A stretch of 64,000 nucleotides of DNA, from NCBI GenBank assembly GCA_964463355.1, contig CAYXBP010000002.1, positions 77,846 to 141,845 on the forward strand, given 5' to 3'. Made by a program: the position numbers and the translations under genes. The notes beneath the pieces are model-generated. The model had not been told where the DNA came from. It searched no databases and saw only the letters and a list, made by a program, of their open reading frames with translations. How positions within the stretch are numbered: position 1 is the first letter of the stretch; each line of letters starts with the position of its first letter. Origin of the DNA: an uncultured Ruminococcus sp. GTDB lineage: Bacteria > Bacillota > Clostridia > Oscillospirales > Ruminococcaceae. Positions 5,652 to 63,128 of this stretch are shown here, piece by piece.

Positions 5652-5671
5652 GATATACACCTCCCTGATCG

Positions 5672-5705
5672 TATGAAAGAAAGGGCGAAAATGCATTTCG
5701 CCCTT
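5672..5705 (-). terminator. Rho-independent terminator after murA
   Basis: 10-bp stem AAGGGCGAAA (5681-5690) / TTTCGCCCTT (5696-5705). On the minus strand it is followed by TTCTTTCAT. Confidence 0.6.
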
Positions 5706-5759
5706 AACTTATTTCGAATTTCGAAAAATCACAGAACCGCTTTGCTGCCGCAAAAAGCC

Positions 5760-7085
5760 TCAGTTTTCGCCCACAGCAGCAGACAATTCTCCTGTCGCAG
5801 AGTCAGCATCCGTTGGCAGTATCTCACGCGTGATGCAAGCACCAAGTGCTGTAAGCTTGCCTGCCATATCCGCGTAGCCACGCTCAATGTGGTGGATATC
5901 CTCAATGTAGGTCACACCAGAGGCTGCCAACCCCGCAATCATCAATGCAGCACCCGCACGAAGATCACAAGCCTTCACTGGCGCACCAGTCAATGCACCT
6001 TTCCCCTCAATGATAGCGACCTTGCCATCCACCTGAATATCCGCACCCATACGGCGCAACTCGTCCACATACTGGAAACGTTGCTCAGATACTTCCTCCT
6101 TCACCATGCTTGTGCCCGATGCAAGACAAAGCAATGTGGAAATCTGTGGCTGCATATCTGTAGGAAATCCTGGGTGCGGTCTGGTACGCACGCTTGCCTT
6201 CACCAAGGGGCCATCCACATATACGCGGACGCAATCGTGTTCCTCATCGGCTTCAACATTCACGCCGATCTTCTCCAGCACGCTGATGATAGAATCCAAA
6301 TGCTTCACCGTCACATTTTTGACCATTACATCACCGCCAGTAGCAGCTGCGGCAACCATATAGGTGCCTGCCTCAATCTGATCGGGAATGACAGGATAAC
6401 TCGTACCGCGCAGAAATTTCACGCCGCGAATCTTAATGGTATCCGTACCAGCGCCGATGATATCGGCACCCATAGAGTTTAAAAAGCTTGCCAAATCAAC
6501 AATATGCGGCTCTTTTGCGGCATTATTGATCACCGTAAGTCCCTCTGCCTTCACCGCCGCAAGTATGGCATTCATGGTTGCGCCCACGGTCACCACATCA
6601 AAAAAGATCTGGTTGCCCTTCAAAGGCTTTGCGACCAAATCCACCATACCACGCTCAATCTTGCACTCAGCACCCAATTTTGTAAACGCCTTGATATGCT
6701 GGTCAATCGGTCTGCCGCCCAATGGGCAGCCACCAGGCATGGATACTCTCGCCAGACCGCATCTTCCCAGCAGCGCGCCCATGAAATAATATGAAGCACG
6801 CATTTTTCTCGCGGATTCATAGGGTACACAGGTACTGTTGACAGGGCGTGGGTCGATACGATAGGTATGCGCGCTGAGCTGTTCCACAACGGCACCCAGT
6901 TCACGCAGAATTTGCACGCTAATAGTTACATCGCTGATATCGGGTACATTTTCGATGACGCAAGGCTCATCGCAGAGCAAAGCCGCAGGCAAAATGGCAA
7001 CGACAGCATTTTTTGCGCCGCTGATCTCCACCTCGCCACACAGCCGTCTGCCGCCCCGTATTACAAAACGAGCAGGTGCTTTCAT
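5760..7085 (-). CDS. murA: UDP-N-acetylglucosamine 1-carboxyvinyltransferase
   Basis: MKAPARFVIRGGRRLCGEVEISGAKNAVVAILPAALL... shows full-length MurA similarity. The start at 7085 follows a GGAG RBS. The tracked start at 7184 is an extension. Confidence 0.96.
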   Translation of the reverse strand: MKAPARFVIRGGRRLCGEVEISGAKNAVVAILPAALLCDEPCVIENVPDISDVTISVQILRELGAVVEQLSAHTYRIDPRPVNSTCVPYESARKMRASYYFMGALLGRCGLARVSMPGGCPLGGRPIDQHIKAFTKLGAECKIERGMVDLVAKPLKGNQIFFDVVTVGATMNAILAAVKAEGLTVINNAAKEPHIVDLASFLNSMGADIIGAGTDTIKIRGVKFLRGTSYPVIPDQIEAGTYMVAAAATGGDVMVKNVTVKHLDSIISVLEKIGVNVEADEEHDCVRVYVDGPLVKASVRTRPHPGFPTDMQPQISTLLCLASGTSMVKEEVSEQRFQYVDELRRMGADIQVDGKVAIIEGKGALTGAPVKACDLRAGAALMIAGLAASGVTYIEDIHHIERGYADMAGKLTALGACITREILPTDADSATGELSAAVGEN

Positions 7086-7183
7086 AGTGGTATCTCCTTG
7101 GTTCATTCTGTCTGTTCTGTGGATAGTATGTGCAGATTCTCTCTCTGTATCGTTCACGCTGCACATACTGTAATGCTGCTGCA

Positions 7184-7954
7184 TTACTCCACCACGGCAG
7201 GCGTTTGCTGCTCGCCGTTTGCGTTTCGATAATTCACGCCGCTGCCATCGTACTCGATCACAACTGCCTTTTCGATAATCACCTGCGACTTTGGCTTATC
7301 GTTTGCATCCACGGCGACCTCTTGCACAGCAAGGCAATACTCCAAACCATCGAACACCTGTCCGAAGATTTCATAGCCGCCGTCCAAATCAGGTCTGCCG
7401 CCCATCAGCTTGTACATATCCTTGACAGGCCCCGTGTAAGTAAGCCCATAGGTCGTTTTCAGCTGTTCAAAGTAATTGTCACTCGTTTCCAGCCCAGTGA
7501 CAATGTAAAACTGACTTGCATTACGTTTATCTTGCCCCACGGCATACGCCAGCGCCCCTGCATAATGCTGCAAATTCGGGGAGATATTCTGTGCAAAGCC
7601 CTCGGTACCGTTTGCATCCACGCCACCAGTGCCATCACCTTTCGGATCGCCGCCCTGCACCACAAAATGCTTAATGACGCGGTGGAAGATCAGTTCATCG
7701 TAATAGCCGCTTTCCACCAGCGATTTAAAATTCTCCACGCCCTCGGGACATTCTTCAGGAAACAGTTTGATTTTCACATCACCGTAGCCTTTAATGGTCA
7801 TGACTACGATTTCCTCGCCCACCTCAGGCTGTGTGAAATTCAAGATTTTCTGGTTCTCCAGAACCACTTCTTTATTACAAGCGCAGAGCATCGGCACGGT
7901 AACAGCACAGCAAAGTGCCACCGCTGCGATACGCTGCAAACGCTGCTTAAGCAT
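7184..7954 (-). CDS. Cyclophilin-type peptidyl-prolyl cis-trans isomerase, probable lipoprotein
   Basis: HRVIKHFVVQGGDPKGDGTGG core. N terminus MLKQRLQRIAAVALCCAVTVPMLCAC carries a lipobox-like cysteine. AAGGAG lies 9 nt upstream of the ATG at 7954. Confidence 0.85.
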   Translation of the reverse strand: MLKQRLQRIAAVALCCAVTVPMLCACNKEVVLENQKILNFTQPEVGEEIVVMTIKGYGDVKIKLFPEECPEGVENFKSLVESGYYDELIFHRVIKHFVVQGGDPKGDGTGGVDANGTEGFAQNISPNLQHYAGALAYAVGQDKRNASQFYIVTGLETSDNYFEQLKTTYGLTYTGPVKDMYKLMGGRPDLDGGYEIFGQVFDGLEYCLAVQEVAVDANDKPKSQVIIEKAVVIEYDGSGVNYRNANGEQQTPAVVE

Positions 7955-8131
7955 TCCAAAGGACTCCTTGATACAAGGTTTTCGCGGCCGTTTCATGGGT
8001 ACGAACGAACAGAGCGCGACCGCGTAAGGAATATTATACCACAGATTTTTGGTTTTGTAAAGCAATTCTTAAGATTTTCTTCATCTTGCCGAAAAGCAAC
8101 GCCCGAAACGGCTGTATTTTATTCTTTGTTA

Positions 8132-8959
8132 TCAATCAGCGACCATTGAGGGCCAATATTCTACGATCTCCACAGAGGTGATCATAATATCCTCAACAGG
8201 GCGCATGGCGTTTTCTTCCCCTGTAAGAGTCGCTCCGGTAATAGTTTCCAAGACCGAAAAGCCGTCATAGAGCTGTCCAAATACCGTCATCTGCTGGGAA
8301 TAATTGGGAATACCGCCATACTTCACGAAGGCATCTGCCACGGGATTATCCTCCTCACCCTCTTGCAGACCGTTTATGATCTCCTCGGTCATCTCAATGC
8401 TATCCACAACCAAAAAGCGACTGCCGTTAAAGGTTTTCTGGGTTCCCGTCAACAACTTCCAAAAGCCCTGTTCGCTGCCCGTGGTCAACGAGCAAAGTGC
8501 GCCACGGAAGGGCCACATATTTTGTGTTAACTCACGTTCAACATTTTCCTGCGGCTGATCGCTGCCGCCCTCCGCCAAGGAACCGTCTGCATTGGGGCTG
8601 CCGCCTGAAAAAAACACATTCTGCTCCACGCGGAACACATAGGTATTATTATAATATCCGCTTTGGGCGAGCTGCGTGAAATTGGCAACGGCAAGAGGGC
8701 ACTCATCGGGATATAATAAAAAAAACATATCTCCTACGGTTGTATGCATAATAGCAACGGGATCGCCCTCTTCTGGCTCTTCCAGCTGCACTAGTTTGAC
8801 TTCATCCAGATTGACTCTTGCGCTGATATCTTTGGAAACGGAATACCACACCGAACAAAGCAGTGCCAGCACCAACGATACAGCAATCAGAATCGACAAA
8901 ATTTTGACAGTACGCGCCGTAGAGGGCGTATTACGTGTTGCAAGATTTGAGGGCTTCAT
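8132..8959 (-). CDS. Membrane-anchored cyclophilin-like protein (divergent PPIase domain)
   Basis: TM anchor ILSILIAVSLVLALLCSVWY. Cyclophilin-like segments are LYPDECPLAVANFTQLAQSGYYNNTYVFRVEQNVFFSGGSP and NGSRFLVV...TVFGQLYDGFSVLETI. Start trimmed to the ATG at 8959. Confidence 0.7.
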   Translation of the reverse strand: MKPSNLATRNTPSTARTVKILSILIAVSLVLALLCSVWYSVSKDISARVNLDEVKLVQLEEPEEGDPVAIMHTTVGDMFFLLYPDECPLAVANFTQLAQSGYYNNTYVFRVEQNVFFSGGSPNADGSLAEGGSDQPQENVERELTQNMWPFRGALCSLTTGSEQGFWKLLTGTQKTFNGSRFLVVDSIEMTEEIINGLQEGEEDNPVADAFVKYGGIPNYSQQMTVFGQLYDGFSVLETITGATLTGEENAMRPVEDIMITSVEIVEYWPSMVAD

Positions 8960-9048
8960 GGCAATAGGATTCCTTTCTTGAGGCAAAGTATGCGAACACA
9001 ATCCTACACTATTATACCTTTTTTTGTCGCATAAGTCAAGTTATGCCG

Positions 9049-9094
9049 AAAAAAAAAGCCAAAACAGCAGGAGCATTGCAAGCCCCTGCTGTTT
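9049..9094 (-). terminator. Rho-independent terminator after purL
   Basis: 9-bp stem AACAGCAGG (9063-9071) / CCTGCTGTT (9085-9093). On the minus strand it is followed by GGCTTTTTTTTT. Confidence 0.7.
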
Positions 9095-9104
9095 CATCAT
9101 GCAA

Positions 9105-12100
9105 TCAATCTGCGAAATAACGCACGCCACTTTCAAAAATTTTCTGATCCTTTTCGCCAGGAACGTTCTTGCACACCTGCGTGCCCATACGCTCACTGTG
9201 GCCCATCTTGCCCAGCACACGGCCATCGGGAGATGTAATGCCCTCAATTGCATCCACTGAGCCATTCGGATTAAAACGAATATCCATGGTAGGACGACCA
9301 CTGAGATCCACATACTGCGTTGCAATCTGCCCATTGCCAGCCATGCGGCGCAGCAACGATGCCGGAGCGATAAATCGCCCCTCACCGTGAGAGATCGCCA
9401 CGGTATGCAGATCATCGGGCTTACAGGCAGCAAGCCACGGCGATTTATTAGACGCGATTCGGGTAGTGACCATCATGCTCTGGTGGCGCGCAATGGTGTT
9501 GAAGGTCAATGTGGGGGAATTGTCGCTCATCTCCACAATCTCACCAAAGGGCACCAATCCCAGCTTGATAAGGGCTTGGAAGCCATTGCAAATACCCAAC
9601 ATCAGACCATCGCGCTGTTGCAGCAGCTTGTGAACCGCCTCTGCCACACGAGGATTACGGAAGAACGCCGTGATGAATTTACCAGATCCGTCTGGCTCAT
9701 CGCCGCCAGAGAAGCCACCAGGCAACATGATCATCTGGGCATTGGCGATGGACTTCACCGCTGCCTCCACAGATTCCTCAATCGCATCTGCGGAAAGGTT
9801 ACGAATCACGAGAATCTCAGGTTCTGCACCAGCACGTGCAAAGGCACGGGCGGTATCATATTCGCAGTTGGTGCCAGGGAACACAGGAATCAGCACACGA
9901 GGCTTTGCGTATTTCACCGCAGGAGTCGGACGGCGTTCTGCGGTATGACTATATGCCTCTATAGTAGCAAACTCAGTCTTGATGCGGCATGGATACACAG
10001 ATTCCAGCTTACCCTCCCATGCTTTTTGCAGTGTATCAAGACTGATCGTGTAGCTGTCGCTGAAGATCTTGTACTGCTCGGTTGTGCGACCGATGACCTC
10101 CTCATCTGCCTTGGCAGCACCGTCAAGCTCAATGATAAACGATCCGCTAAAGGGTGCAAACAAGATTTGCTCGGGCAAAGTGCAGCTGAATTCAAAGCCG
10201 ATATGGTTGCCAAAGCACATCTTTGCAATGCCTTCTGCGACACCGCCGCCAGCAACTGTCCAAATCGCTTTTGCTCTACCCTCGGAGATCAGCTGTTCCA
10301 CACGTTCAAATGTAGCACGAACGCTGTCCCAATCAGGCAGCCCATTGCTGTCATAAGAGGGAGCAAGACGAATGACGGTATCTCCCGCCGCTTTAAATTC
10401 GGTAGAAAGCACGCGCGTGGTGTTGGCAGTAGATACGGCAAAGGAAACAAGCGTTGGTGGCACATCGACGTTTTCAAAAGTGCCAGACATGGAATCCTTT
10501 CCGCCGATGGATGCACAGCCAAGTTCCAGTTGCGCCTTGAAGGCACCCAGCAGCGCAGAGAAGGGCTTACCCCAACGAGCGGGATCATTCTGAGTGCGCT
10601 CGAAATACTCCTGGAAGGTCAGCCAGCACTGATGCCGACTGCCGCCTGCGGCGATCACTTTTGCCACAGACTCGATGACAGCCTCCATAGCACCGTGGTA
10701 GGGCGAATGCTCTGAGATGCTGGGCTGGAAGCCGTATGCCATCAGCGAGCAGGTTGTGGTATCCCCTTGCAGTATGGGAATCTTTGCCGCCATTGCCTGT
10801 GTGGGAGTCAGCTGATAGACACCGCCAAAGGGCATCAGCACGGTACCCGCACCGATAGTGGAATCAAATTTCTCTACCAAGCCCTTCTGCGAACAGACAT
10901 TCAAATCAGACATCAGTTCTTTCCATCCATCGGGGGTATCCTCAAAGAGAATCGGGGCACTCTGCTGGGGCGCGGCTGCCACGATATCGGTATGCTTTTC
11001 CGCGCCATTGGAGTTCAAAAACGCTCTGGAAAGGTCAACGATCACATTACCATTCCAGTGCATACGCAGACGATTCGTATCTGTTGCCTTTGCCACCACG
11101 GTTGCCAGCAGATTCTCTGCTGCGGCGGCTTTCATGAAGGCATCCACATCTTCTGGCGCAACAACCACCGCCATACGCTCCTGAGATTCAGAAATGGCAA
11201 GCTCGGTGCCGTCCAGACCGTCATATTTTCTCGGCACTGCATTGAGGTCAATATCCAAGCCGTCGGTCAGCTCACCAATGGCGACCGATACACCGCCCGC
11301 GCCAAAATCATTGCAACGTTTGATAAGCTTCGTCACGGCAGGGTCACGGAACAATCTTTGCAGCTTTCGTTCTTCAGGGGCATTGCCCTTTTGCACCTCC
11401 GCACCGCAATGGGTCAACGATTCCAGCGTATGAGATTTGGAAGAGCCTGTTGCGCCACCACAGCCATCTCTGCCAGTTTTTCCACCCAGCAGGATGATCA
11501 CATCGCCAGGCACGGGTGCTTCACGGCGGATATTCTCCGCAGGGGCAGCACCCACCACCGCGCCGATCTCCAGACGCTTTGCCACATAACCTGGGTGATA
11601 CACCTCTGTGACATGACCCGTAGCCAGACCAATCTGGTTGCCGTAGGAGCTGTAGCCGTTTGCCGCACCCACCGTGATCTTTCTCTGGGGCAGCTTGCCA
11701 GGCATGGTATCTGCCACAGGCACCAGCGGATTTGCCGCACCAGTCACGCGCATTGCCTGATACACATAGCTTCTGCCAGAAAGCGGGTCACGAATCGCAC
11801 CGCCCAGGCAGGTTGCCGCACCACCAAACGGTTCAATCTCGGTGGGGTGATTGTGGGTTTCGTTTTTAAACATCAAAATCCAGTCCTCATCACCAGCATC
11901 GGTTTCCACCTTAATCTTTACAGAGCAGGCATTAATCTCCTCGCTTTCATCCAATGCAGGAATTTTCCCATCTGCCTTCAGCTTGCGCATTGCCATGGTT
12001 GCCATATCCATCAAGGTTACAGGCTTTGCCTCTCTACCCAGTTCTTTACGGATGCGCAGGTAGTCCTCATACGTTTCGCGGATATAGGGGGTGTCCACCT

Positions 12101-53081: not shown

Positions 53082-54959
53082 ATGAAGACTTATGAGGAAC
53101 TCAAGGCGATCAGAGAGCGTGCCGAAAAGGAAGTTGCTCTGAGAACCCATGGCGGCGCCTCTTCCCGATACGAAAGACATGTGCTGGTTTGCGGCGGTAC
53201 CGGTTGTACTTCTTCCGGCTCCCAAAAGATCATTGCCGAGCTGGAAAAGCAGCTTGCTGCTTTTGATCTCACCGATAAGGTGCAAATCGTAAAGACTGGC
53301 TGCTTCGGTCTGTGCGCAAAAGGCCCGATCATGATCGTTTACCCCGAAGGCTCTTTCTATTCGATGGTCAAGGTAGAAGAAATCGCCAAAATCGTTGAAG
53401 AGCACCTGAAGAATGGTAACCCTGTTAAGGAATTCCTGTATGAGGAAACCTTGCACGGCGACCACATCAAAGCATTGGATGAGACAAACTTCTACGCAAA
53501 GCAGCACCGTGTCGCTCTGCGTAACTGCGGCGTGATCAACCCTGAGTGCATCGAGGAGTACATCGGCAGAGGCGGTTATGAGGCTCTGGCAAAGGTGGTC
53601 ACCTCCATGACCCCCGAAGAGGTCATCCAGACCGTTCTGGACAGTGGCCTGCGTGGCAGAGGCGGCGGCGGCTTCCCCACTGGTATGAAATGGAAGCTCG
53701 CAAGAAACCTCGTGCCCGATGCCGATATCAAGTATGTATGCTGTAACGCCGATGAGGGCGACCCAGGCGCATTTATGGATCGTTCCATCCTGGAGGGTGA
53801 CCCCCATGTTCTGATCGAAGCAATGGCAATCGCAGCTTTCGCCATTGGCGCAAGTCAGGGCTATGTCTATGTCCGCGCAGAGTACCCTATCGCTGTACAG
53901 CGTCTGCGCTTCGCCATCCAGCAAGCGCGCGAAACTGGTCTGCTGGGCAAGAACATCTTCGGCTCCGACTTCAGCTTTGATATGGATCTGCGTCTGGGCG
54001 CAGGTGCGTTTGTCTGCGGTGAGGAAACTGCACTGATGACCTCTATTGAGGGCAACCGTGGTGAGCCTCGTCCCCGTCCGCCTTTCCCTGCTGAGAAAGG
54101 TCTGTACAACAAGCCTACCATCCTCAACAACGTGGAAACCTACGCAAACATTCCCCAGATCATCGTGAACGGTGCTGAGTGGTATGCCGCAATGGGTAAG
54201 GATAACTCTAAGGGCACGAAGGTGTTCGCGCTGGGCGGTAAGGTCACCAACACTGGTCTGGTGGAGGTGCCTATGGGCACCACACTCCGTGAGATTATTG
54301 AGGAAATCGGTGGCGGTATTCCCAACGGAAAGAAGTTCAAGGCAGCACAGGCAGGCGGCCCGTCTGGCGGTTGTATCCCCGCACAGCATTACGACGTGAA
54401 TGTTGACTACGACAGCCTCGCAAAGATTGGCTGTATGATCGGCTCTGGCGGTCTGATCGTTATGGACGAGGATAACTGCATGGTCGATATCGCAAAATTC
54501 TTCCTGGAGTTCACCATGGATGAATCCTGCGGTAAGTGCGCACCTTGCCGTATCGGTACTAAGAGAATGTACGAGATTCTGGATAAGATCACAAAGGGTC
54601 AGGGCACTCTCGAGGATATCGACAAGCTGGAGGAGCTGTGCAACCACGTAAAGGCAAATTCCTTGTGTGGTCTGGGTCAGACTGCCCCCAACCCCGTTCT
54701 TTCTACGCTGCGTTTCTTCCGTGATGAGTATATCGCTCACGTTGTTGAAAAGCGTTGTCCCGCAGGTGTTTGTAAGGATCTGTTGCAGTACACCATTCTT
54801 GAAGATAAGTGCAAGGGCTGTACCGCTTGTGCAAGAAAGTGCCCCGCAAACGCGATCTCTGGCACCGTGAAGCAGCCGCACACCATTGATCCCGCAAAGT
54901 GCATCAAGTGCGGTGCTTGTATCGATACCTGTAAGTTCGGCGCAATCATCAAAAAGTAA
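53082..54959 (+). CDS. hydB: NuoF-like flavoprotein subunit of the [FeFe]-hydrogenase
   Basis: GLRGRGGGGFPTGMKW (FMN/NADH site), ESCGKCAPCR, and C-terminal 2x[4Fe-4S] CKGCTACARKCP / CIKCGACIDTC. Confidence 0.92.
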   Translation: MKTYEELKAIRERAEKEVALRTHGGASSRYERHVLVCGGTGCTSSGSQKIIAELEKQLAAFDLTDKVQIVKTGCFGLCAKGPIMIVYPEGSFYSMVKVEEIAKIVEEHLKNGNPVKEFLYEETLHGDHIKALDETNFYAKQHRVALRNCGVINPECIEEYIGRGGYEALAKVVTSMTPEEVIQTVLDSGLRGRGGGGFPTGMKWKLARNLVPDADIKYVCCNADEGDPGAFMDRSILEGDPHVLIEAMAIAAFAIGASQGYVYVRAEYPIAVQRLRFAIQQARETGLLGKNIFGSDFSFDMDLRLGAGAFVCGEETALMTSIEGNRGEPRPRPPFPAEKGLYNKPTILNNVETYANIPQIIVNGAEWYAAMGKDNSKGTKVFALGGKVTNTGLVEVPMGTTLREIIEEIGGGIPNGKKFKAAQAGGPSGGCIPAQHYDVNVDYDSLAKIGCMIGSGGLIVMDEDNCMVDIAKFFLEFTMDESCGKCAPCRIGTKRMYEILDKITKGQGTLEDIDKLEELCNHVKANSLCGLGQTAPNPVLSTLRFFRDEYIAHVVEKRCPAGVCKDLLQYTILEDKCKGCTACARKCPANAISGTVKQPHTIDPAKCIKCGACIDTCKFGAIIKK

Positions 54960-54973
54960 GGAGGCTTCTCGGC

Positions 54974-56734
54974 ATGAGTGAAATGCTGAATGTAACAATC
55001 AACGGTCAGGCAATTCAAGTTGCCAAGGGCAGCACCATTCTGGAGGCTGCACATCAGGCAAATGTGACCATTCCCACCCTCTGCTACATGAAGGATATCA
55101 ACGAAATCGGTGCTTGCCGTATGTGTATCGTTGAGGCAAATGAAGGCAGAGGCTTCCGCTGCGTTGCAGCATGTGTATATCCCTGCACCGAGGGCATGGA
55201 GATTCTTACCAACAGCCCTAAGGTGCTTGATTCCCGCAAAAAAACACTTGAGCTGATTCTCTCCAACCACGACAGAAAATGTCTCTCTTGCGTACGCAGC
55301 AATAACTGCGAGCTGCAAAAGCTTGCAAAAGATCTGGGCGTTGAGGACGCAAGCCGCTATGACGGTGAGCGAATCGAGTATCCCATTGATACCACCGCTG
55401 CCCATATGTACCGCGATAATAACAAGTGCGTGCTGTGCCGTCGTTGCGTCGCTGTCTGCGAAAAGACACAGGGTATCGGCGTCATTGGCGCCAACGATCG
55501 TGGCATCAGCACCCATATCGGCTCTGCGTTTGAAAAGGGTCTTGGCACAACTGCCTGCGTAAATTGCGGTCAGTGTATCGCCGTGTGCCCCACTGGTGCC
55601 CTCTCCGAAAAGGACTTCACCAAGGAAGTGTTCGCCGCCATCGCTGACCCCAACAAGAAGGTAATTGTTAACACGGCACCTTCCGTCCGAGCTGCTTTGG
55701 GCGAGGCGTTCGGTATGCCCATCGGAACCAATGTGGAAGGAAAAATGGTCGCCGCCCTGCGCAGACTGGGCTTTGACTTCGTGTTCGATACCAACTTCTC
55801 CGCCGACCTGACCATCCTTGAGGAAGGCACAGAGCTGATTGATCGCGTGACCAATAACGGCGTACTGCCGATGATCACCTCCTGCTCTCCTGGTTGGGTC
55901 AAGTTCTGCGAGCATTACTATCCCGATATGCTCCCCCACCTCTCCTCTTGCAAGAGCCCGCAACAGATGTTCGGTGCGGTCACCAAAACCTATTTTGCAG
56001 AAAAAATGGGTTGGGATCCCAAGGATGTCGTATGCGTGAGCATCATGCCCTGTACCGCCAAGAAGTTTGAAAGCGGCAGAGAGGATCAGGCAGCTTCTGG
56101 CTATCCCGATATCGACTACGCACTGACTACCCGTGAGCTTGCCCGTATGATCGAGCGCGCAGGTTTGCAGTTTACTGCCCTGCCCGATGAGAAATTTGAC
56201 GATCCGCTGGGTATCTTCACTGGTGCAGGTCTGCTGTTTGGCGCAACTGGCGGCGTAATGGAGGCTGCTCTGCGTTATGCCGTTGAGGAGATCACTGGCG
56301 ATAAGCTGGGTGCCGACGCCATTGATTTCAAGGAAGTCCGTGGTACCGATGGCATCAAGGAAGCAGCCTACAAGGTTGGGGATCTGGAAGTCAAGGTTGC
56401 AGTTGTCAGCGGTCTGGCAAATGCACGTATCGTAATGGACAAGATCCGCAGCGGCGAAGCAGACTATACTTTCGTTGAGATCATGGCTTGCCCTGGCGGC
56501 TGTGTCAACGGCGGTGGTCAGCCCATCCAGCCTGGCAGCGTTCGTAATTTCAACGATCTGCGTTCACTGCGCGCAAAGGCTCTGTACGATCAGGATGCTA
56601 CCATGGAACTGCGTAAATCTCAGGATAACCCCGCTGTTCAGGCACTTTATACCGAATACCTCGGTAAGCCTGGCAGCCACAAGGCACATGAGATTCTGCA
56701 CACCAGCTATGTCGCAAGAAAGGTCAATTTCTAA
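54974..56734 (+). CDS. hydA: [FeFe]-hydrogenase catalytic subunit (multimeric group A type)
   Basis: N-terminal ferredoxin-like clusters plus H-cluster motifs TSCSPGW, MPCTAKKFE and EIMACPGGCVNGGGQP. Confidence 0.94.
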   Translation: MSEMLNVTINGQAIQVAKGSTILEAAHQANVTIPTLCYMKDINEIGACRMCIVEANEGRGFRCVAACVYPCTEGMEILTNSPKVLDSRKKTLELILSNHDRKCLSCVRSNNCELQKLAKDLGVEDASRYDGERIEYPIDTTAAHMYRDNNKCVLCRRCVAVCEKTQGIGVIGANDRGISTHIGSAFEKGLGTTACVNCGQCIAVCPTGALSEKDFTKEVFAAIADPNKKVIVNTAPSVRAALGEAFGMPIGTNVEGKMVAALRRLGFDFVFDTNFSADLTILEEGTELIDRVTNNGVLPMITSCSPGWVKFCEHYYPDMLPHLSSCKSPQQMFGAVTKTYFAEKMGWDPKDVVCVSIMPCTAKKFESGREDQAASGYPDIDYALTTRELARMIERAGLQFTALPDEKFDDPLGIFTGAGLLFGATGGVMEAALRYAVEEITGDKLGADAIDFKEVRGTDGIKEAAYKVGDLEVKVAVVSGLANARIVMDKIRSGEADYTFVEIMACPGGCVNGGGQPIQPGSVRNFNDLRSLRAKALYDQDATMELRKSQDNPAVQALYTEYLGKPGSHKAHEILHTSYVARKVNF

Positions 56735-56765
56735 TCTTTCAGGCATATTTGTGATGTAAACAACA

Positions 56766-56804
56766 CAAACCCGAAGGGCTGCAACGTCCTTCGGGTTTGT
56801 TTTT
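56766..56804 (+). terminator. Rho-independent terminator after hydA (bidirectional-looking)
   Basis: AAACCCGAAGG / CCTTCGGGTTT stem followed by GTTTTTT. Confidence 0.8.
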
Positions 56805-56845: not shown

Positions 56846-57514
56846 TTATAAGCCATATTTGATTTCAATGCGCGAGAGTTTATCATCCACGGGCTTGCGC
56901 ATCAGCCACAAAAACAGTACATTGCTGCAAGCGTATAGCAGTGTGTATGGCAATGCAGCAGCCAATGCCGCGCGGTACATCGCAACGGAGAAAGCCTCGT
57001 ACTGCCACACTACTGTCCAGATATCCATCAGCAAAGAATAAACCACTCCCGTTACACAACCGTAGAGCAGTAACAGCCATCTATACCGCCGCAGCACGCG
57101 GTGTATCGCCCCTGCTCCCCAGCCGATGCCCCCCCACGCCAGCATCTGAAAGACTGTCCATGGACCTTGCCCGAAAAACACATTGGAGAGCAGTGCTGTT
57201 CCTGCCCCGATCAGAAAACCAGATTCCTTGCCCAGATACAGCGCACCGAGGATAATAATCGCAGTGACTGGCTTGACCATAGGCAGCATTCTGCCCAAAA
57301 CCGCCAACGCCATAAAAATCACCGAAAGTACCAGCCTACGCACCCCAATCTCCTTCTGCCCGATGCCGCAAACGAACAGCAGCAATATTAGTGCTGCCAT
57401 CATAAAGATGAAGAGCGCGGTATATTTTGTTGGCAATTGTGCCGATATCCAAACAACAGTGGGCAACACAAGCAGTGGCAGTAGATAACAACAAATGGCA
57501 CGTAAGTGTTTCAT
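56846..57514 (-). CDS. ECF transporter S component (substrate-capture subunit; CbrT-like by context)
   Basis: 222 aa, about 6 TM, with an LSNVFFGQGPWTVFQMLAWGGIG motif. ATGA overlap with the ATPase gene. Confidence 0.75.
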   Translation of the reverse strand: MKHLRAICCYLLPLLVLPTVVWISAQLPTKYTALFIFMMAALILLLFVCGIGQKEIGVRRLVLSVIFMALAVLGRMLPMVKPVTAIIILGALYLGKESGFLIGAGTALLSNVFFGQGPWTVFQMLAWGGIGWGAGAIHRVLRRYRWLLLLYGCVTGVVYSLLMDIWTVVWQYEAFSVAMYRAALAAALPYTLLYACSNVLFLWLMRKPVDDKLSRIEIKYGL

Positions 57515-59133
57515 TGCGATGCACCACCTTTTGGTTTAGCCTTGCAGCAATCCGCCACAGCGTCCACAGTGACCGCATTCTCACATAATCCATTGCTCAT
57601 CCGCCTTGCAGCAGTGGTATAAAAGTAGTTTTGTGAGAAAAAAGCAGTCGGTGATTGCATCCCGATAACCGCACCGCGAAACAGCAAGCCGCAAGTATCC
57701 GCAAAAAGAGCCGCAAATTCCACATCATGAGTTACTGTCAGTATCGCAATGCCGCGAGCGCACAAGCTACGCAAAATCGCACCCAATTCAGCTTTGGCAA
57801 TGGCATCCAAACCCTTGGTTGGCTCATCCAACAGCAAAACCTGTGGTTGCTGCCCCAAGATCTTGGCAAGTGCCACCAATTGTTGCTGTCCGCCGCTGAG
57901 ATCATAAGGGTGCCGCTGCAAAAAAGGGGTCAAATCAAAAGGCAACGCATCCACCGCACACTGTGTTTCGGCAAGTTCCTCAGCAACTGTGTTCCGTGCA
58001 AAGAGCATCTGAACATTTTGCGGCAGCATGGCAAGGCAGTTGTGATACAGATCCCCACCCTTATATTTACCAATCGGCTTTTGCAGCACAGTAATTTTGC
58101 CACAATATGGCCGCAGCAGACCAGCAGCATTTTTTAACAGGGTCGATTTTCCTGCACCATTATCCCCCAGCAAACAAATCCATTGCCCACGATGCAGCGT
58201 CAAATCACAGCCATGCAGAATATCTTCCGCACTGCGCTCGTATCGAAAGCAAATATCTTTCAGTGAGAGTGCCTCGTCCCCAAAAACCTTTTGCAAGGGC
58301 AGCTGCCCATTGCACAGTGTAAAATGTTGTTGTAGATATGCCTTGCCCTCTGCCACAGAGAGCGGTGTATGCTCCTGCATTTTCGGCAATTGGTGATACA
58401 GTCGCACAGCTGCGGGCATGGCACCTGCCATTGGGTGATGAGCAGGCAAAGCCGATAGCACTGCACGAGGTGTGCCAAAGGCAGCGATTTCCCCTTTTTC
58501 CAGCAACAACATGGCAGTAGATGCAGCAATTGCCTCCTCCAGACGATGCTCCGTCAGCAAAATTGTCAACGAAAAGTCCCGATGCAGCCGTTCCAGAGTC
58601 GCCATAAAAGCGGCAGCAGCAATGGGGTCAAGCTGCGCAGTCGGCTCATCCAGAATCAGCACCCTGGGCTGCATCACCATCACCGAAGCAAGATGCAAAA
58701 GCTGTTTTTGTCCGCCCGAAAGGCTTGATGTGTCGCAGTTGTATTGATCCGTCATGCCAAAGTACGATACCATCTCTGCCACACGAACGCGGATCTCATC
58801 AGGGGGCGTGCCCAGATTTTCCAGCCCGAATGCCAACTCATGCCATACACGGTCGGTCACAATCTGTTCTTCAGGATGCTGAGATACAAACCCAACCATT
58901 TCGGGCGGTACCTCCTTGATGGGTGCATCGCCGAGCAAAATATCACCCGAACAGCTGCCCTTTGGTGTCAGCTGAGGTTTCAGCAACCGCAGCAGTGTGG
59001 TTTTACCGCAGCCTGTTTCGCCGCAAATGGTCAGAAATGCACCTTCCTCCACCGCAAAAGAAATGTTACGCAAGGCTGGCGTATCCGCTACAGGATACGA
59101 AAAGTTCACATTACGGAACGCAAGTGTCGCCAT
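57511..59133 (-). CDS. ecfA: Fused tandem ECF/ABC ATPase (EcfA-EcfA')
   Basis: Two Walker A motifs (GETGCGKTT, GDNGAGKST) and two signatures (LSGGQKQ, LSGGQQQ). Confidence 0.88.
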   Translation of the reverse strand: MATLAFRNVNFSYPVADTPALRNISFAVEEGAFLTICGETGCGKTTLLRLLKPQLTPKGSCSGDILLGDAPIKEVPPEMVGFVSQHPEEQIVTDRVWHELAFGLENLGTPPDEIRVRVAEMVSYFGMTDQYNCDTSSLSGGQKQLLHLASVMVMQPRVLILDEPTAQLDPIAAAAFMATLERLHRDFSLTILLTEHRLEEAIAASTAMLLLEKGEIAAFGTPRAVLSALPAHHPMAGAMPAAVRLYHQLPKMQEHTPLSVAEGKAYLQQHFTLCNGQLPLQKVFGDEALSLKDICFRYERSAEDILHGCDLTLHRGQWICLLGDNGAGKSTLLKNAAGLLRPYCGKITVLQKPIGKYKGGDLYHNCLAMLPQNVQMLFARNTVAEELAETQCAVDALPFDLTPFLQRHPYDLSGGQQQLVALAKILGQQPQVLLLDEPTKGLDAIAKAELGAILRSLCARGIAILTVTHDVEFAALFADTCGLLFRGAVIGMQSPTAFFSQNYFYTTAARRMSNGLCENAVTVDAVADCCKAKPKGGASQ

Positions 59134-59996
59134 CGGTACACCTCCATGATCTCAGCTACCGCAGGATACAGGCAAAGCAGCCCATAGGCAAGATATGCTG
59201 CCACAGCATACAAATTCGCAGGGCACATTTTCCAGCGAGGATAGAACTGCACGGTCAGTACACCGCTGCCCCAAGCAAACAATATCAACGATATCAGCAG
59301 TAAAACTACCCCAAGGTGCAGACCATCTCGCCACCGAAAACGATACTCCGCAAGCTGGGTTCGCTTAACCGTGCCATAACAACGTGCAGCCATACTATCC
59401 GCCGTGATAATGCCGTTTTCGATCGCCCAAGAAAGCGTTGCGGAAAAAATATGCAGGTTTTCGGCAATGCGGTAGATGGGGTTATCCTCCTGTGCAAGCC
59501 CCGCAGCGCATCTTGCTTCGCGTATCTGCCGCATAATCTGTGACAGTCTTGCCGATTGCCGCAACCCCATGGAAAAAACCAGTGCCAACTGTGGAGAAAT
59601 TCCACCAAGCATACAAAAAACACGCTCTGCGGTCATATGGGAGGCAAAAAAAGCAAACCACAAAAGCGCAGCAGCAAGCATCAGCCCGGCAACCAACCCG
59701 TAGCAGAGTGCCTCTGCGGTCACCGCCGTATCATTGATAAAAAAGAGTATCGTTTCCCCTCTTTGATTCCATAGAGGATTCAACAACGCCGAAGCAATGA
59801 TCATCACCGCAGAAAGCCCCCAAAGGCGCAGCAACAATCGTTTTTCATGGTATGTATCGGGCAGCAAAGAATACGCCCCCGCCCCTACCAGTGCAATGCA
59901 AAGTAGGACGGGGTTGCGCAAAAACATTGCAATCAGAATCACTGCCAGTAAATGTGCAGCGATCGTCACAGGATGCATTTGCTGCAAAGGGCGCAT
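59106..59996 (-). CDS. ecfT: ECF transporter transmembrane (T) component, CbiQ family
   Basis: MRPLQQMHPVTIAAHLL... is polytopic, with an ARCYG-type coupling-helix region. AAGGAG precedes the ATG at 59996. It overlaps the ATPase start by 28 nt. Confidence 0.8.
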   Translation of the reverse strand: MRPLQQMHPVTIAAHLLAVILIAMFLRNPVLLCIALVGAGAYSLLPDTYHEKRLLLRLWGLSAVMIIASALLNPLWNQRGETILFFINDTAVTAEALCYGLVAGLMLAAALLWFAFFASHMTAERVFCMLGGISPQLALVFSMGLRQSARLSQIMRQIREARCAAGLAQEDNPIYRIAENLHIFSATLSWAIENGIITADSMAARCYGTVKRTQLAEYRFRWRDGLHLGVVLLLISLILFAWGSGVLTVQFYPRWKMCPANLYAVAAYLAYGLLCLYPAVAEIMEVYRWRHLRSVM

Positions 59997-60019
59997 GATA
60001 CTTCTCCTTTCAGCGTCAA

Positions 60020-61729
60020 TCAGGGCACAATATCTCGCCCTAGATCCAGCGTATAGATCCATTGAATGCAGTCACCATCAACAAGAGGCACTTGCCCGCA
60101 CCCCACAGATGCAGTTTCACCATTCACAAAAAACATCCACCCCGAAAGTTCGCCGTAATCAAATTCATACAAATTGGCAATACCGCGAACATAGGCAAGC
60201 GTATCAGAGCCGTCAATCTCCACTTGCAATTGATACTCCTTGCAAGCCAGTTGCAGCGCATCCAACACGGTATCATCCTGTTCAAAATACAGCACGGTTG
60301 GCGGAAGAATATAACCGTCATCGAACTGCGCAGTATACTGACTATCCTCAGGAAGCAGATCACAGCAAATAGAAAAGGTGATGCTTCCAACCGCATTTTG
60401 CGGCGTATTTGCATTTTGATAATGCTGTTCAGGGGATTCCACACGAATCAGATGCACTGCTGCAATCAGCAATGCCGCGATTAGCCCCAACAGAATATAA
60501 TAAAAAAAATGCCGCCGACCTTGCTTCATCAATACAAGTACAGCGATAGCAGCAGCAACCAGAATCGCGGCTGTCAGCACCCATTTCAGCAGATAAGGCG
60601 TGGATTTTCGTGCAAATGTCGATTGTGTGGTAATGATGGTTATGGTGGTTGTTTCCGTCGTAGATATGCTTTCCACGGTAGTACCGTCTTGCAATGTGTT
60701 CATGGTAGTAGCAGTGGCAGTGGTTGTTTCAACAGTAGTAGATGTGGTCATTGCAGGATTCGACTGCGAAACTGTAGACTCTTCTTGCTGAGGAATGGGA
60801 TCGGCAAAGTGATAAAAATCGCCCTTTCCCGATTGCAACATCTCATATGCAACCAATGCAAGATACACCTGCACCGTTGCGATTTTGTTTGCCTTTCCAC
60901 CAATGTTGTGCGAATACATTCCAGCTGAAACAGAAAATTCCTGAATAGATGCATAGAGGTCACAGTATTTCATGAATCTCGCATCATTCAACGCGTCAAT
61001 ACCAAGCAGTGAGAGAGCAATCCAGACCTGTGCTGTGCTTTCTGGATTCGGCGTACCGTAGCTTTGATATCCGCCGTTTTCCAGTTGCGCCCCCGAAAGA
61101 TATTCCACAGCTTTTTCAACAGCAGCTGCAACCGCAGCATTCTCCCGATGAGGTGCGAGTGCCTGTAGTGTCATTGCTGTAACATCCACATCAGCGTTGC
61201 CGCCTGTAACCGTCCATCCGCCATCTGCAAGCTGCATAGAGAGAATTTGTGCTATGGTTTCTTCAGCGGATTTGACACATGGCACCCCGTTATTCTGCAA
61301 ATGCAGACCAAACACCCAGCTCATCAATCCCTGCTGCCCGATGGTTTCATCAAGCAATGCACGCAGTGAATTGACTTCTTCAGGTGCCACTGCAAGATAG
61401 GTCAATGCGCTTCTCTGCCGCGAAACTGCATTGTGGCTGCCCTTTGCAATGACATCACGTAATGCAGTTTCACAAGCAGAAAAATCATACTGGGTATCGC
61501 TATGGGATAGTGCCATGATATACCAGTCCGTGCCGCTGCTGCCAATGGTGGCAGCCAATGGCTCATCGAGCCATTGCTGCACTGAAACCGCGCCATCTTG
61601 TTCCAACTGCGCCGCAAGAATCGAATGCGCGGTTTCAGTGCAGTCAGCGGCACGGACACACCAAGGCATACAGCACCCGAGCAGCAATATGGAAAACAGT
61701 ACAGCAATTGCCCTCGCAGACGATTTCAC
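60020..61729 (-). CDS. Secreted alpha/alpha-toroid (prenyltransferase/squalene-cyclase-repeat-like) domain, T/S-rich linker, TM hairpin, and C-terminal DUF4430 (transcobalamin-like beta domain)
   Basis: Signal peptide MKSSARAIAVLFSILLLGCC. Repeats QLADGGWTV and QLENGGYQSYG. T-rich linker. Two TM helices (LLKWVLTAAILVAAAIAVLVL, FFYYILLGLIAALLIAAVHLI). C terminus ...GELSGWMFFVNGETASVGCGQVPLVDGDCIQWIYT is the DUF4430 pattern. The GTG start overlaps the upstream TGA (GTGA). Confidence 0.75.
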   Translation of the reverse strand: MKSSARAIAVLFSILLLGCCMPWCVRAADCTETAHSILAAQLEQDGAVSVQQWLDEPLAATIGSSGTDWYIMALSHSDTQYDFSACETALRDVIAKGSHNAVSRQRSALTYLAVAPEEVNSLRALLDETIGQQGLMSWVFGLHLQNNGVPCVKSAEETIAQILSMQLADGGWTVTGGNADVDVTAMTLQALAPHRENAAVAAAVEKAVEYLSGAQLENGGYQSYGTPNPESTAQVWIALSLLGIDALNDARFMKYCDLYASIQEFSVSAGMYSHNIGGKANKIATVQVYLALVAYEMLQSGKGDFYHFADPIPQQEESTVSQSNPAMTTSTTVETTTATATTMNTLQDGTTVESISTTETTTITIITTQSTFARKSTPYLLKWVLTAAILVAAAIAVLVLMKQGRRHFFYYILLGLIAALLIAAVHLIRVESPEQHYQNANTPQNAVGSITFSICCDLLPEDSQYTAQFDDGYILPPTVLYFEQDDTVLDALQLACKEYQLQVEIDGSDTLAYVRGIANLYEFDYGELSGWMFFVNGETASVGCGQVPLVDGDCIQWIYTLDLGRDIVP

Positions 61730-62538
61730 GACCGCTTTCTCCTTGTCACCATAACGGCAAGTGCCGCACCAGCAAACAACATCGCAGCGACAGGCGATGC
61801 ATCACCAGTTTCCACCGCAGGAGCAGCAGTAGTTGTGGTTGCAGCACCCGCAACGGACATTTTGCAGCAGGGAGGTACCAAAATCTGCGTATCAGATGCG
61901 GCACTGATGATATGTTCTCCAGCATCGGTAAGCGAAACATCCACCACACCATCAGCATTGGTCTTATACGCACTTTCTTTGCCGTCAATCAGAATTGTCG
62001 CATCTGCTACTGGCAACGTAACAGGATTCCAATTTTCATCATATCCTGCCGCAGAAAGCGTTAATGTCACTGTATCACCGCTTTTCATCTCCACCGTCTG
62101 CACATCAAAATAGCAGTAAGTATCAGAATACATCGTCGTATCTGTGTACACAAATGCGTTGATACGATCACCATCCGACACTGCATCTGCCAAACTCATC
62201 GCAGAAGCATCGTTGCGATAATACCCGTAGCTGCCGCCATTTTCGCAGCCCCACAGCTTTGTCATACTCAAACCGTAATCAGTCAGCTCTGCACCAAAAC
62301 CTGCTGCGCCCTCAGCATAATACGCCTCATGTGCCAAATAAAGCGCGTCGTGAATGGTCAGTGTGCCGTCACCATCGATATCAGTCACTATAACTTCGCC
62401 CTGCGCCAATGCAAGATTTCCTTCTTCGTCGGCAATGGTCACGGTCACGGTGGGTGCTTCGGCAGCAGATACTGTCATTGCTCCCACAGAAAGTGCTGCT
62501 GAAGCCAACAGCGCGGTCATGATTCTGCGTTTCTTCAT
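61726..62538 (-). CDS. Secreted DUF4430-like plus Ig-like domain protein with a sortase-type C-terminal sorting signal
   Basis: Signal peptide MKKRRIMTALLASAALSVGAMTVSA. TVTIADEEGNLALAQGEVIV...GYYRNDASAMSLADAVSDGDRINAFVY is DUF4430-like. The C terminus is PAVETGDASPVAAMLFAGAALAVMVTRRKRS. A GGAGGA RBS precedes the ATG at 62538. Confidence 0.7.
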   Translation of the reverse strand: MKKRRIMTALLASAALSVGAMTVSAAEAPTVTVTIADEEGNLALAQGEVIVTDIDGDGTLTIHDALYLAHEAYYAEGAAGFGAELTDYGLSMTKLWGCENGGSYGYYRNDASAMSLADAVSDGDRINAFVYTDTTMYSDTYCYFDVQTVEMKSGDTVTLTLSAAGYDENWNPVTLPVADATILIDGKESAYKTNADGVVDVSLTDAGEHIISAASDTQILVPPCCKMSVAGAATTTTAAPAVETGDASPVAAMLFAGAALAVMVTRRKRS

Positions 62539-62837
62539 GGTTGAATTCCTCCGTTTTCTTCCTCTTGGCGTAATACGCCTGTATGATGATCTGCCTTGGT
62601 ACGCAAGCGTTTTTGCACTGTTTTGTGATGCCGTGTATCCTCTCTCGGCGGTTTCAGCCCTGCTGATTCCAATGCTCTGCCCCACGGCCCTAACGCTGCC
62701 TTGATATTCGCCACCTGCTGCGGCGCAAAATCACTGCGCCGTGGATACCGCTGCACGCCCTGTTGACACAGCAAAGCCTGCATCTCACACAACAAACGGA
62801 TCGCCTCCTGCTGTTTTTCATCAGCCAAAGTCTGCAC
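62535..62837 (-). CDS. Small hypothetical protein, first cistron of the riboswitch-controlled operon
   Basis: RYPRRSDFAPQQVANIKAALGPWGRALESAGLKPP resembles a repeat common in Firmicutes (homing-endonuclease-associated repeat type). ATGA overlap with the next gene. The start is ambiguous: GTG at 62837 or TTG at 62828. Confidence 0.5.
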   Translation of the reverse strand: MQTLADEKQQEAIRLLCEMQALLCQQGVQRYPRRSDFAPQQVANIKAALGPWGRALESAGLKPPREDTRHHKTVQKRLRTKADHHTGVLRQEEENGGIQP

Positions 62838-62850
62838 CTGCCTTTCTCAC

Positions 62851-63093
62851 AAAATAAAAACGCCCTCTATTGACGCGGCAAACGATCAATAAAGGGACAC
62901 AGCAATTCCACACTGCAACGCGAAAAAGGCACAACTCTCCCGTTACAGATGCGAAAGCGGCTGCACCCTTCATACCCAAAGGTGTCGGCATTATTGCCGA
63001 TTTGCCAACAGTCACGGGGAGTATTCCGACTGTAACGGTAATGGCGGTTGCGACGGATTTTCACCGAACTTCCCTTCCACCGTGCTGTTTGAT
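62851..63093 (-). promoter_or_regulatory. Cobalamin riboswitch (compact aptamer plus long expression platform ending in an intrinsic terminator)
   Basis: Minus-strand RNA: P1 CACGG (63084-63080) pairs with CCGUG (63017-63013). The enclosed core is UGGAAGGGAAGUUCGGUGAAAAUCCGUCGCAACCGCCAUUACCGUUACAGUCGGAAUACUCC, which carries the conserved GGGAA...GGUGAAAAUCC...GC..CCGCC...ACCGU and B12-box-like AAUACUCC elements. The terminator is an 11-bp stem (62896-62886 / 62873-62863, one G-U pair) followed by CGUUUUUAUUUU, ending 14 nt before the first start codon. Confidence 0.7.
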
Positions 63094-63099
63094 GTTGTA

Positions 63100-63128
63100 A
63101 TCTTACCATATTTATCGAAAAATGTCAA
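63100..63128 (-). promoter_or_regulatory. Sigma-A-type promoter driving the riboswitch operon
   Basis: On the minus strand, TTGACA (63128-63123), 17 nt, TAAGAT (63105-63100), with a TGg extension. Confidence 0.55.

Follow-up and report, generated by a model that had tools for sequence, protein, structure and literature searches.

How do the dominant Gram-positive Clostridia of gut and rumen compete for corrinoids, which are scarce and structurally varied? The question is raised by an operon in a 64,000-nucleotide (nt) stretch of DNA from an uncultured Ruminococcus sp. (contig CAYXBP010000002.1, positions 77,846 to 141,845). This whole stretch is called the window in the following, and coordinates without a prefix refer to it. 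Read on the minus strand, its region 56846-63128 holds a promoter, a cobalamin riboswitch and an antiterminator/terminator, followed by six closely packed head-to-tail open reading frames (ORFs), here termed p1 to p6. The operon probably encodes a system for the scavenging and import of vitamin B12 (corrinoids) that is repressed by B12 via transcription attenuation. This reading is supported by the riboswitch, the predicted fold of p3, the CbrT-like transporter, the conserved synteny, the fusion of p2 to a p3-type toroid in a related locus, and an independent prediction made in 2007. A review of September 2026 describes extracellular cobamide capture in Gram-positive bacteria (Firmicutes) as "entirely uncharacterized".

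The six genes are translationally coupled. Their reading frames overlap at four junctions: by ATGA between p1 and p2 (62535-62538), by GTGA between p2 and p3 (61726-61729), by 28 nt between p4 and p5 (59106-59133), and by ATGA between p5 and p6 (57511-57514). A first-pass annotation, made by a model from the sequence alone, had listed six minus-strand cistrons with these overlaps, and the ORF listing agrees with it throughout.

Leader and cobalamin riboswitch

The leader begins with a predicted sigma-70-type promoter at 63100-63128 (minus strand), read as TTGACA-17-TAAGAT with a TG-extended -10 element. As proposed in the first-pass annotation, this is the best promoter match in the region, agreeing with the consensus at 10 of 12 positions; taken as a class, promoter-like sites show no enrichment relative to shuffled sequences, with 8 found and 7.3 expected. 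In two related loci, L087 and L091 (related loci are numbered with the prefix L), similar TTGACA/TTGACT-17-TATAAT promoters lie approximately 25 nt ahead of the aptamer.

An Rfam scan of the whole window at the gathering score returned zero matches. In E-value mode with permissive filters, RF01689 (AdoCbl-II) matches 63012-63085 on the minus strand over its full length (model positions 1-81 of 81, E = 9e-7), which corresponds to a cobalamin aptamer of the short AdoCbl-II type. Taken alone, this aptamer is borderline, and it was therefore tested via orthologous leaders from homologous operons fetched via p3. RF01689 scores 36.5-44.1 bits at the same position in L003, L004, L008, L009 and L024 (R. 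flavefaciens), and RF00174 reaches up to 93.8 bits in L005/6, L012, L013, L016, L020, L023, L028, L034, L036, L047, L064, L066 and L081. One or the other of these two models is matched in 18 of the 21 distinct loci sampled. With nhmmer profiles built from the Rfam-verified hits, a cobalamin aptamer on the operon strand is found in 78 of 86 related loci, the window being recovered at E = 2e-20; of the eight loci lacking an aptamer match, several come without upstream DNA. Among the short-type aptamers of six orthologs, the core is invariant, and covariation is seen in the closing helix P1.

Downstream of the aptamer, nine leaders from divergent systems share the conserved element UUUGGRUAUGAAAAGYGCAGCC. 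The antiterminator element of the window, GUAUGAAGGGUGCAGCCGC (62957-62975, minus strand), is conserved in these nine leaders and complementary to the 5' arm of the terminator, with which it pairs at 62887-62905. The intrinsic terminator itself (62851-62896, minus strand) consists of a hairpin at 62896-62863 followed by UUUUUAUUUU, with the U-run at 62860-62851. The U-run ends 13 nt before the GTG start codon of p1 at 62837, in keeping with the earlier placement of a leader terminator just before the first start codon. According to RNAalifold, a 14-pair hairpin with a U-run and compensatory pairs is present in all nine leaders. The competing antiterminator duplex has a free energy of -18.2 kcal/mol in the window (z = -3.1) and of -15 to -20 kcal/mol in 8 of the 9 leaders (z = -2.4 to -5.1). 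Compensatory changes are seen in this duplex as well, namely from GCAGC/GCUGC to GUAGC/GCUAC and, in the window, from AAAAG/CUUUU to AAGGG/CCCUU.

The ortholog aptamers, the conserved terminator and the compensatory antiterminator pairing together argue that the leader is a genuine cobalamin riboswitch, predicted to act by transcription attenuation with mutually exclusive antiterminator and terminator helices. Of the riboswitch-like leader claimed in the first-pass annotation, the full-length RF01689 match and the aptamer class across the 78 loci stand; the match in the window itself stays below the gathering score. By the usual logic of B12 OFF switches, ligand binding would favour the terminator.

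In L003, a publicly annotated gene of 101 amino acids (aa) at 5519-5824 overlaps the cobalamin riboswitch at 5591-5668; this ORF was probably called in error.

The putative transcobalamin-like binder p3

The third gene, p3 (60020-61729, minus strand), starts with GTG and encodes 569 aa. The protein consists of a signal peptide, an alpha/alpha toroid (residues ~30-300), a Thr-rich disordered linker (313-378), a transmembrane (TM) hairpin, and a DUF4430/SLBB beta-domain (448-560). The two helices of the hairpin, at 381-402 and 408-427, are separated by a cytoplasmic KQGRRH loop. DUF4430 (PF14478) is matched by residues 485-560 with 60 bits against a cutoff of 23.8. For the toroid, the Pfam scan of the single sequence gave sub-cutoff matches only; the p3 family profile matches squalene-hopene-cyclase repeats at E = 2e-11. 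Both domains had been named in the first-pass annotation and are recovered here.

Searched with the same profile, the sequences of the PDB yielded terpene cyclases and not transcobalamin. A different picture emerges from structure. The AlphaFold model of p3 has a mean predicted local distance difference test score (pLDDT) of 80, with the toroid confident, and its Foldseek matches in the PDB are headed by intrinsic factor and human, rat and bovine transcobalamin, which take ranks 1-13; haptocorrin follows at rank 21. A comparison with transcobalamin and intrinsic factor had been suggested in the first-pass annotation. The alignments to the three kinds of carrier span both domains (~560-600 columns, E = 2e-6 to 5e-5, probability 1.00). 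Ranked lower are matches to single domains, namely terpene cyclases for the toroid and, for the C-terminal domain, 3U7Z (a DUF4430 protein of R. gnavus) and the beta-domain of human transcobalamin, 5no0, with a TMt of 0.76. The relationship of p3 to transcobalamin and intrinsic factor appears to be visible at the fold level only.

The membrane hairpin is a constant feature of the family. In 119 of 120 p3 homologs, exactly two hydrophobic (TM) segments lie between the domains and are joined by a short basic, KRGRRH-like loop. Two TM segments in the middle of the protein with a basic loop between them imply, by the positive-inside rule, that both domains face outward. Judged by its predicted structure, p3 is a bacterial analogue of transcobalamin, with toroid and beta-domain both extracytoplasmic and held at the membrane by a two-helix hairpin.

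The toroid carries an invariant D-V-D-V-T-A (residues ~177-186, GGNADVDVTAM; 61185-61202, minus strand), which aligns with the DxDDTA motif of class II terpene cyclases, the last Asp being replaced by Val. It looks like a relic that ties the toroid of the B12 binder to the terpene cyclases.

The ECF transporter, p4 to p6

The last three genes of the operon encode, as far as family profiles can tell, a dedicated (group I) energy-coupling factor (ECF) transporter with an S component that belongs with CbrT. Its parts correspond to the EcfT, fused double EcfA and ECF S component of the first-pass annotation. One boundary had to be corrected: the ORF of p4 is open up to 60062, and the gene calls in the identical contigs L001 and L002 begin at 59996. 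This gives a protein of 296 aa (59106-59996, minus strand).

The window protein p4 alone has no match in Pfam or NCBIfam. CbiQ (PF02361) is matched by 21 of 24 p4 relatives, and the family profile matches solved EcfT chains, the best being that of L. delbrueckii (5d3m_D, E = 4e-13), so that p4 can be addressed as a CbiQ-type T component. The product of p5 (57511-59133, minus strand; 540 aa) is a fused EcfA-EcfA' double ATPase with two ABC_tran domains and scores 320.1 bits against a cutoff of 315 with the equivalog model TIGR04520 (ECF_ATPase_1).

The S component p6 (56846-57514, minus strand; 222 aa) stays just below the cutoff of the ECF_trnsprt model (PF12822; 29.6 vs 30.7) as a window protein, and all 21 relatives tested match both PF07155 and PF12822. 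When the single sequence is compared with all PDB sequences, 6fnp_A is the only significant relative (E = 4e-8). With the p6 profile, this match strengthens to E = 1.4e-16 over residues 5-177 of 182, the next S component being 4hzu_S at 5.8e-5. Chain 6fnp_A was assigned to CbrT because no other entry contains this 182-aa chain, while the EcfT chain recurs in other entries. CbrT is by far the closest solved relative of p6, rather than a member of a non-corrinoid vitamin family.

Residues 1-57 of p6 form a conserved hydrophobic N-terminal extension of ~55 aa that is absent from L. delbrueckii CbrT. It might add one or two TM helices, perhaps in contact with the membrane hairpin of p3.

The secreted partner p2

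Between p1 and p3 lies p2 (61726-62538, minus strand), with an ATG start and a product of 270 aa. From the family alignment, p2 is composed of a signal peptide, an N-domain at residues 30-145, an Ig-like/CarboxypepD_reg-like beta-sandwich and a tripartite tail. The family comprises more than 648 clusters, all annotated as "hypothetical", and no Pfam domain is assigned to it. The p2 model has a pLDDT of 86 and obtains only Ig-like matches in Foldseek, which fits the Ig-like part of the earlier description; 20 of 30 p2 relatives give weak CarboxypepD_reg-like matches.

The other part of that description, which made p2 a DUF4430-like protein, was negative in every test, whether by Pfam, hhalign, Foldseek or cross-profile searches. 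DUF4430 (PF14478) is found in 0 of 30 family members at E <= 1, an hhalign comparison of the p2 N-domain with the p3 beta-domain gives a probability of 3%, and the DUF4430 profile does not match the p2 module in L091 (E = 3.1). All that p2 and the p3 beta-domain share is a short "YGYY.N..DGD.I.AFVYT" motif on equivalent strands and a similar order of secondary structure. The idea that p2 is a second DUF4430/SLBB protein was rejected on the basis of Pfam searches with the 30 relatives, hhalign, Foldseek, a PDB profile search and a cross-profile search of the variant loci; a weak remote homology is possible.

The tail was claimed to be a sorting signal, and here the evidence is divided. The tripartite layout with a hydrophobic stretch and the terminal RRKRS is present in the window protein; its motif, AVETGD, lacks the proline, is degenerate and does not conform to LPXTG. 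The consensus of the family tail is [AS]PxTG[DN], followed by a hydrophobic stretch and basic residues, and the Gram_pos_anchor/LPXTG model (PF00746) is matched by 4 of 30 relatives.

The place of p2 in the system may be read from its associations. In L091, a protein of 741 aa (7221-9446) has a complete p2 module (E = 4e-51) and, fused to it, a toroid of the p3 type (E = 2e-59), and DUF4430 is encoded there as a separate protein of 397 aa (9593-10786) with a lipoprotein-like signal. Because of this domain fusion, the GTGA coupling of p2 to p3, and the presence in L005/L006 of p2-p3 pairs that have a riboswitch but no ECF genes next to them, p2 is regarded as a distinct partner of the toroid. 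As judged from these genomic associations, p2 is a secreted toroid partner with a novel N-domain.

The N-domain contains an invariant loop, DxDxDG.LT..DAL (residues ~51-66; 62380-62421, minus strand). The loop resembles an EF-hand or dockerin-type calcium-binding loop.

The HNH_repeat leader gene p1

The least expected element of the locus is its first gene, p1 (62535-62837, minus strand), which starts with GTG and encodes a conserved small protein of 100 aa. It contains a single HNH_repeat unit (PF18780), followed by a tail rich in Lys and Arg; PF18780 is matched by all 25 relatives tested, with a best E-value of 1e-12. The protein is presumably cytoplasmic, since it has no hydrophobic segment. 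The family comprises more than 5000 clusters, all unnamed, and a link of the PF18780 protein to B12 was not found in the literature searched. A marginal match of the p1 profile to Prp17 in the PDB (E = 1e-3) was judged to be uninformative.

The association of p1 with the riboswitch is close. In 51 of 52 p1 loci, a cobalamin aptamer is located within 700 nt upstream, at a median gap of 175 nt, and the gene that follows an aptamer, for 89 aptamers, is p1 in 51 cases, p2 in 36 and p4 in 2. The aptamers upstream of p1 in L087 and L091 were missed at the Rfam gathering score, and both were found by nhmmer. When three p1 contexts were sampled independently of p3, all three proved to be variant DUF4430/toroid/ECF loci. 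All three carry an aptamer ahead of p1; two of them have a further one between p1 and the genes for the binders. Copies of p1 are located at L012:8816-8998, L028:2250-2462, L087:6001-6276, L089:6001-6309 and L091:6001-6306. The gene is kept through the rearrangements of gene order that the system has undergone.

Related loci and distribution

The synteny p2-p3-p4-p5-p6 is kept in nearly all of the 86 loci. The gene orders seen are p1-p2-p3-p4-p5-p6, p2-p3-p1-p4-p5-p6 and p1-p4-p5-p6-p2-p3. In 11 loci (L012, L014, L016, L033, L039, L056, L060, L062, L068, L077 and L085), two cobalamin riboswitches are present, one before p2-p3 and the other before p1-p4-p5-p6; those of L012 have their aptamers at 5782-5924 and 8578-8704. 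The dual riboswitches imply that binders and transporter form separately B12-controlled transcription units in these 11 loci. A p2-p3 pair with a riboswitch and without adjacent ECF genes occurs in L005/L006 and in L037.

Relatives of p3 are present in at least 539 species-representative genomes. Among the matches listed, the carriers are mainly Oscillospiraceae, Acutalibacteraceae, Ruminococcus (with the four cultured R. flavefaciens strains YL228, MA2007, Y1 and SAb67), Lachnospiraceae and other Clostridia, and the closest named relatives are an Oscillospiraceae metagenome-assembled genome and an uncultured Ruminococcus, which are 76-77% identical.

Some variant loci depart further from the common plan. 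In L089, the variant architecture is seen at 6639-10244 and 10324-11364. Genes of 881 aa that start at L089:12233 and L091:11646 encode an EcfA-EcfA' fused with the S component. A DUF2284 gene is inserted between p1 and the binder genes in L091.

Relation to known systems

An operon of this kind was anticipated by Burroughs, Balaji, Iyer and Aravind in 2007 (Biol Direct 2:4; PMC1796856), who defined the SLBB superfamily computationally. The sections of their paper considered here describe bacterial transcobalamin-like SLBB proteins with signal peptides, Gram-positive anchors and fused alpha/alpha toroids, encoded in operons that also hold a second extracellular protein and CbiO/CbiQ genes. The carriers are said usually to lack B12 synthesis; the role proposed is to scavenge B12, and the animal transcobalamins are suggested to be of bacterial origin. 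The present operon shares with these the secreted SLBB protein with its toroid, a possible anchor signal, a second extracellular protein and CbiO/CbiQ-like genes. The interdomain membrane hairpin, the CbrT-type S component, the riboswitch and the HNH_repeat leader gene go beyond what those sections cover. They also lead one to expect a paralogous SLBB protein as the second extracellular protein, whereas p2 is not an SLBB protein.

The closest characterised transporter is ECF-CbrT of L. delbrueckii (PDB 6FNP; Santos et al. 2018, PMC5997447), which imports cobalamin and cobinamide in an ATP-driven manner and shows no competition by hemin. Its S component is homologous to p6, and its EcfT and EcfA modules are homologous to p4 and p5. 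In contrast to the present dedicated, group I transporter, ECF-CbrT belongs to group II, in which the ECF module is shared, and surface binders are not reported in the paper on it. Further differences on the side of the window are the fused A-A' ATPase, the 55-aa N-terminal extension of the S component and the co-encoded extracytoplasmic binders. A dedicated B12 ECF system is recognised under the name "CbrUVT" and serves as a marker of B12 uptake in comparative genomics.

Like mammalian transcobalamin, intrinsic factor and haptocorrin, p3 combines an alpha/alpha toroid with a beta-grasp (SLBB) domain. Sequence identity to these carriers amounts to 9-12%, and by sequence the p3 toroid is nearer to terpene cyclases. 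The domains of p3 are joined by a TM hairpin and anchored to the cell, whereas those of the mammalian carriers are connected by a soluble linker and secreted. The proposed recipient of the ligand is an ECF transporter in the one case, and in the other it is an endocytic receptor.

In its general logic, the system resembles the BtuG/BtuH/BtuJ/BtuK relay of Bacteroides, in which high-affinity surface binders encoded in B12-regulated loci feed a membrane transporter. The Bacteroides binders have unrelated folds (beta-propeller, DUF4465) and are outer-membrane lipoproteins that feed the TonB-dependent BtuB. The same capture-and-feed logic is found in the Gram-positive Isd heme relay, where sortase-anchored NEAT proteins, again of unrelated fold, feed a type II ATP-binding cassette importer.

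One operon of related composition, lsa1836-1840 of L. sakei, has been studied experimentally and linked to heme uptake (bioRxiv 10.1101/864751); the text of that study never mentions a riboswitch. Compared by description, it likewise encodes the S, A-A' and T components of an ECF system and, in the same transcription unit, extracellular proteins that resemble the alpha and beta parts of transcobalamin. The alpha-like and beta-like parts are separate proteins in L. sakei, whereas they are fused in p3.

The first-pass annotation had regarded the complete architecture as lacking an experimentally characterised example. For corrinoids, this still appears to be true; the novelty is reduced by the prediction of 2007, by the recognised CbrUVT system and by the work on the L. 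sakei operon. The window operon is a new case of a predicted kind. Its membrane hairpin, the identity of p2 and its fusion to the toroid, the near-universal and in part dual riboswitch control, and the p1 leader gene were not found described in the literature searched.

Proposed mechanism and alternative explanations

At low intracellular corrinoid levels, the antiterminator would form and the operon would be transcribed. The p2 protein would be anchored to the wall or membrane and, together with it, the toroid and beta-domain of p3 would clamp the corrinoid at the outer face of the membrane in the manner of transcobalamin. The corrinoid would then be passed on to the neighbouring CbrT-like S component p6 and imported by the EcfT-EcfAA' module at the expense of ATP. 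In B12-replete cells, ligand on the aptamer would lead to formation of the terminator. Within this scheme, p1 may act as a dedicated cytoplasmic component. The capture of corrinoids at the surface and their import by an ECF transporter, as suggested in the first-pass annotation, are thus in line with the riboswitch, the p3 fold and the CbrT-like S component; the passage of the ligand from one to the other is a step that we infer. The computational checks suggested in that annotation all turned out in favour of its reading, and nothing that it had named as refuting was observed.

Several points speak against the scheme as a whole. The window aptamer scores 36.0 bits, which is 0.5 below the RF01689 gathering score of 36.5. 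The p3 model deviates from transcobalamin by a root-mean-square deviation of 13-20 A over both domains and has a predicted template modelling score (pTM) of 0.55, so that the orientation of toroid and beta-domain to each other is unreliable. The sole related operon that has been studied experimentally, that of L. sakei, was tied to heme and not to B12. Finally, the scheme depends on a presumed transfer from binder to S component.

The last point leads to the alternative that fares best, although it is unlikely: the system is corrinoid-related, but its surface proteins do not deliver to the transporter, and the S component captures free ligand alone. The surface proteins might then sequester or store corrinoids and so gain a competitive edge, strip B12 from other carriers, select or remodel particular cobamides or precursors (cobinamide, cobyrinate diamide), or function as receptors for B12 that is bound to proteins. 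ECF S components bind their substrates tightly without an extracytoplasmic partner (PMC5997447), and reviews list CbrUVT for precursor uptake. The p2-p3 pairs that have a riboswitch of their own and no adjacent ECF genes (L005/L006, L037) point in the same direction, as do the separate riboswitches for binders and transporter in the 11 loci with dual control. Against this stand the translational coupling of the binders to a dedicated ECF module and their almost invariable synteny with it. Moreover, the beta-domain is always tethered to the membrane, be it by a TM hairpin or by a lipoprotein signal, as would be suitable for delivering the ligand there.

Import of heme, the conclusion reached for lsa1836-1840, or of some other non-corrin tetrapyrrole is much less probable. 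The L. sakei study connects a similar five-gene operon with heme and argues that its S component lacks the cobalamin-binding residues. In the family considered here, 78 of 86 loci have a cobalamin riboswitch ahead of the operon, often two of them, and the fold of the binder matches B12 carriers. CbrT is the closest solved S component, and hemin is no competitor of B12 transport by CbrT (PMC5997447).

That the toroid is an extracellular enzyme of the terpene-cyclase/prenyltransferase type acting on an envelope lipid, with a merely regulatory link to B12, would agree with its proximity to class II terpene cyclases by sequence and with the alignment of its invariant D-V-D-V-T-A to DxDDTA, but is hardly credible, as Val takes the place of the final Asp in the motif, the domain lies outside the cytoplasm and in fusion with a B12-binding SLBB domain, two-domain matches to intrinsic factor and transcobalamin outrank the cyclases, and the context is an ECF-CbrT under a B12 riboswitch.

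Corrinoid scavenging and import thus being the preferred explanation, an extended form of it may be entertained, tentatively and with more doubt than confidence. The system would then be a three-tier machine, in which p2 is an outer capture or gating element on the toroid, p1 a cytoplasmic factor of the B12 regulon, and the hairpin-tethered clamp the ancestral form of the animal transcobalamins. For instance, p1 would carry the B12 signal to targets outside the operon as a regulator that binds nucleic acid, or serve the ECF ATPase as an acceptor or adaptor.

For the competition among gut and rumen Clostridia, the operon family supplies candidates for the capture step, namely a tethered transcobalamin analogue, p2, a CbrT-type importer and p1. 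If the proteins do bind and deliver cobamides, they would represent a Gram-positive counterpart of the BtuG/H/J/K relay of Bacteroides. The evolutionary origin of the animal B12 carriers would become clearer as well, and it could be seen whether the heme assignment made for L. sakei extends to the family.

Surroundings of the operon

At the beginning of the window, positions 1-4268 (minus strand) show a strong AT skew (+0.39, +0.29), and the ORF list is empty for 986-4393. A phage match was sought for this part and none was found. An unusual element as the source of the skew was rejected; the cause is an ordinary minus-strand ORF for a hydrophobic membrane protein, which exceeds 1400 aa and runs off the start of the window.

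Downstream of p6, a G+C-rich hairpin of 15 bp (56765-56800) is situated between the operon and a hydrogenase gene on the plus strand that converges on it. The hairpin is likely a bidirectional terminator that closes the operon. The converging genes at 53082-56734 (plus strand) encode a HydB/NuoF-like protein (625 aa) and the [FeFe]-hydrogenase HydA (586 aa). Together with an upstream NuoE-like gene that is seen in the identical contigs, they make up a HydABC-type electron-bifurcating hydrogenase cluster. Two Logan assemblies contain proteins identical to those of the operon, next to the same HydABC-type hydrogenase neighbours.

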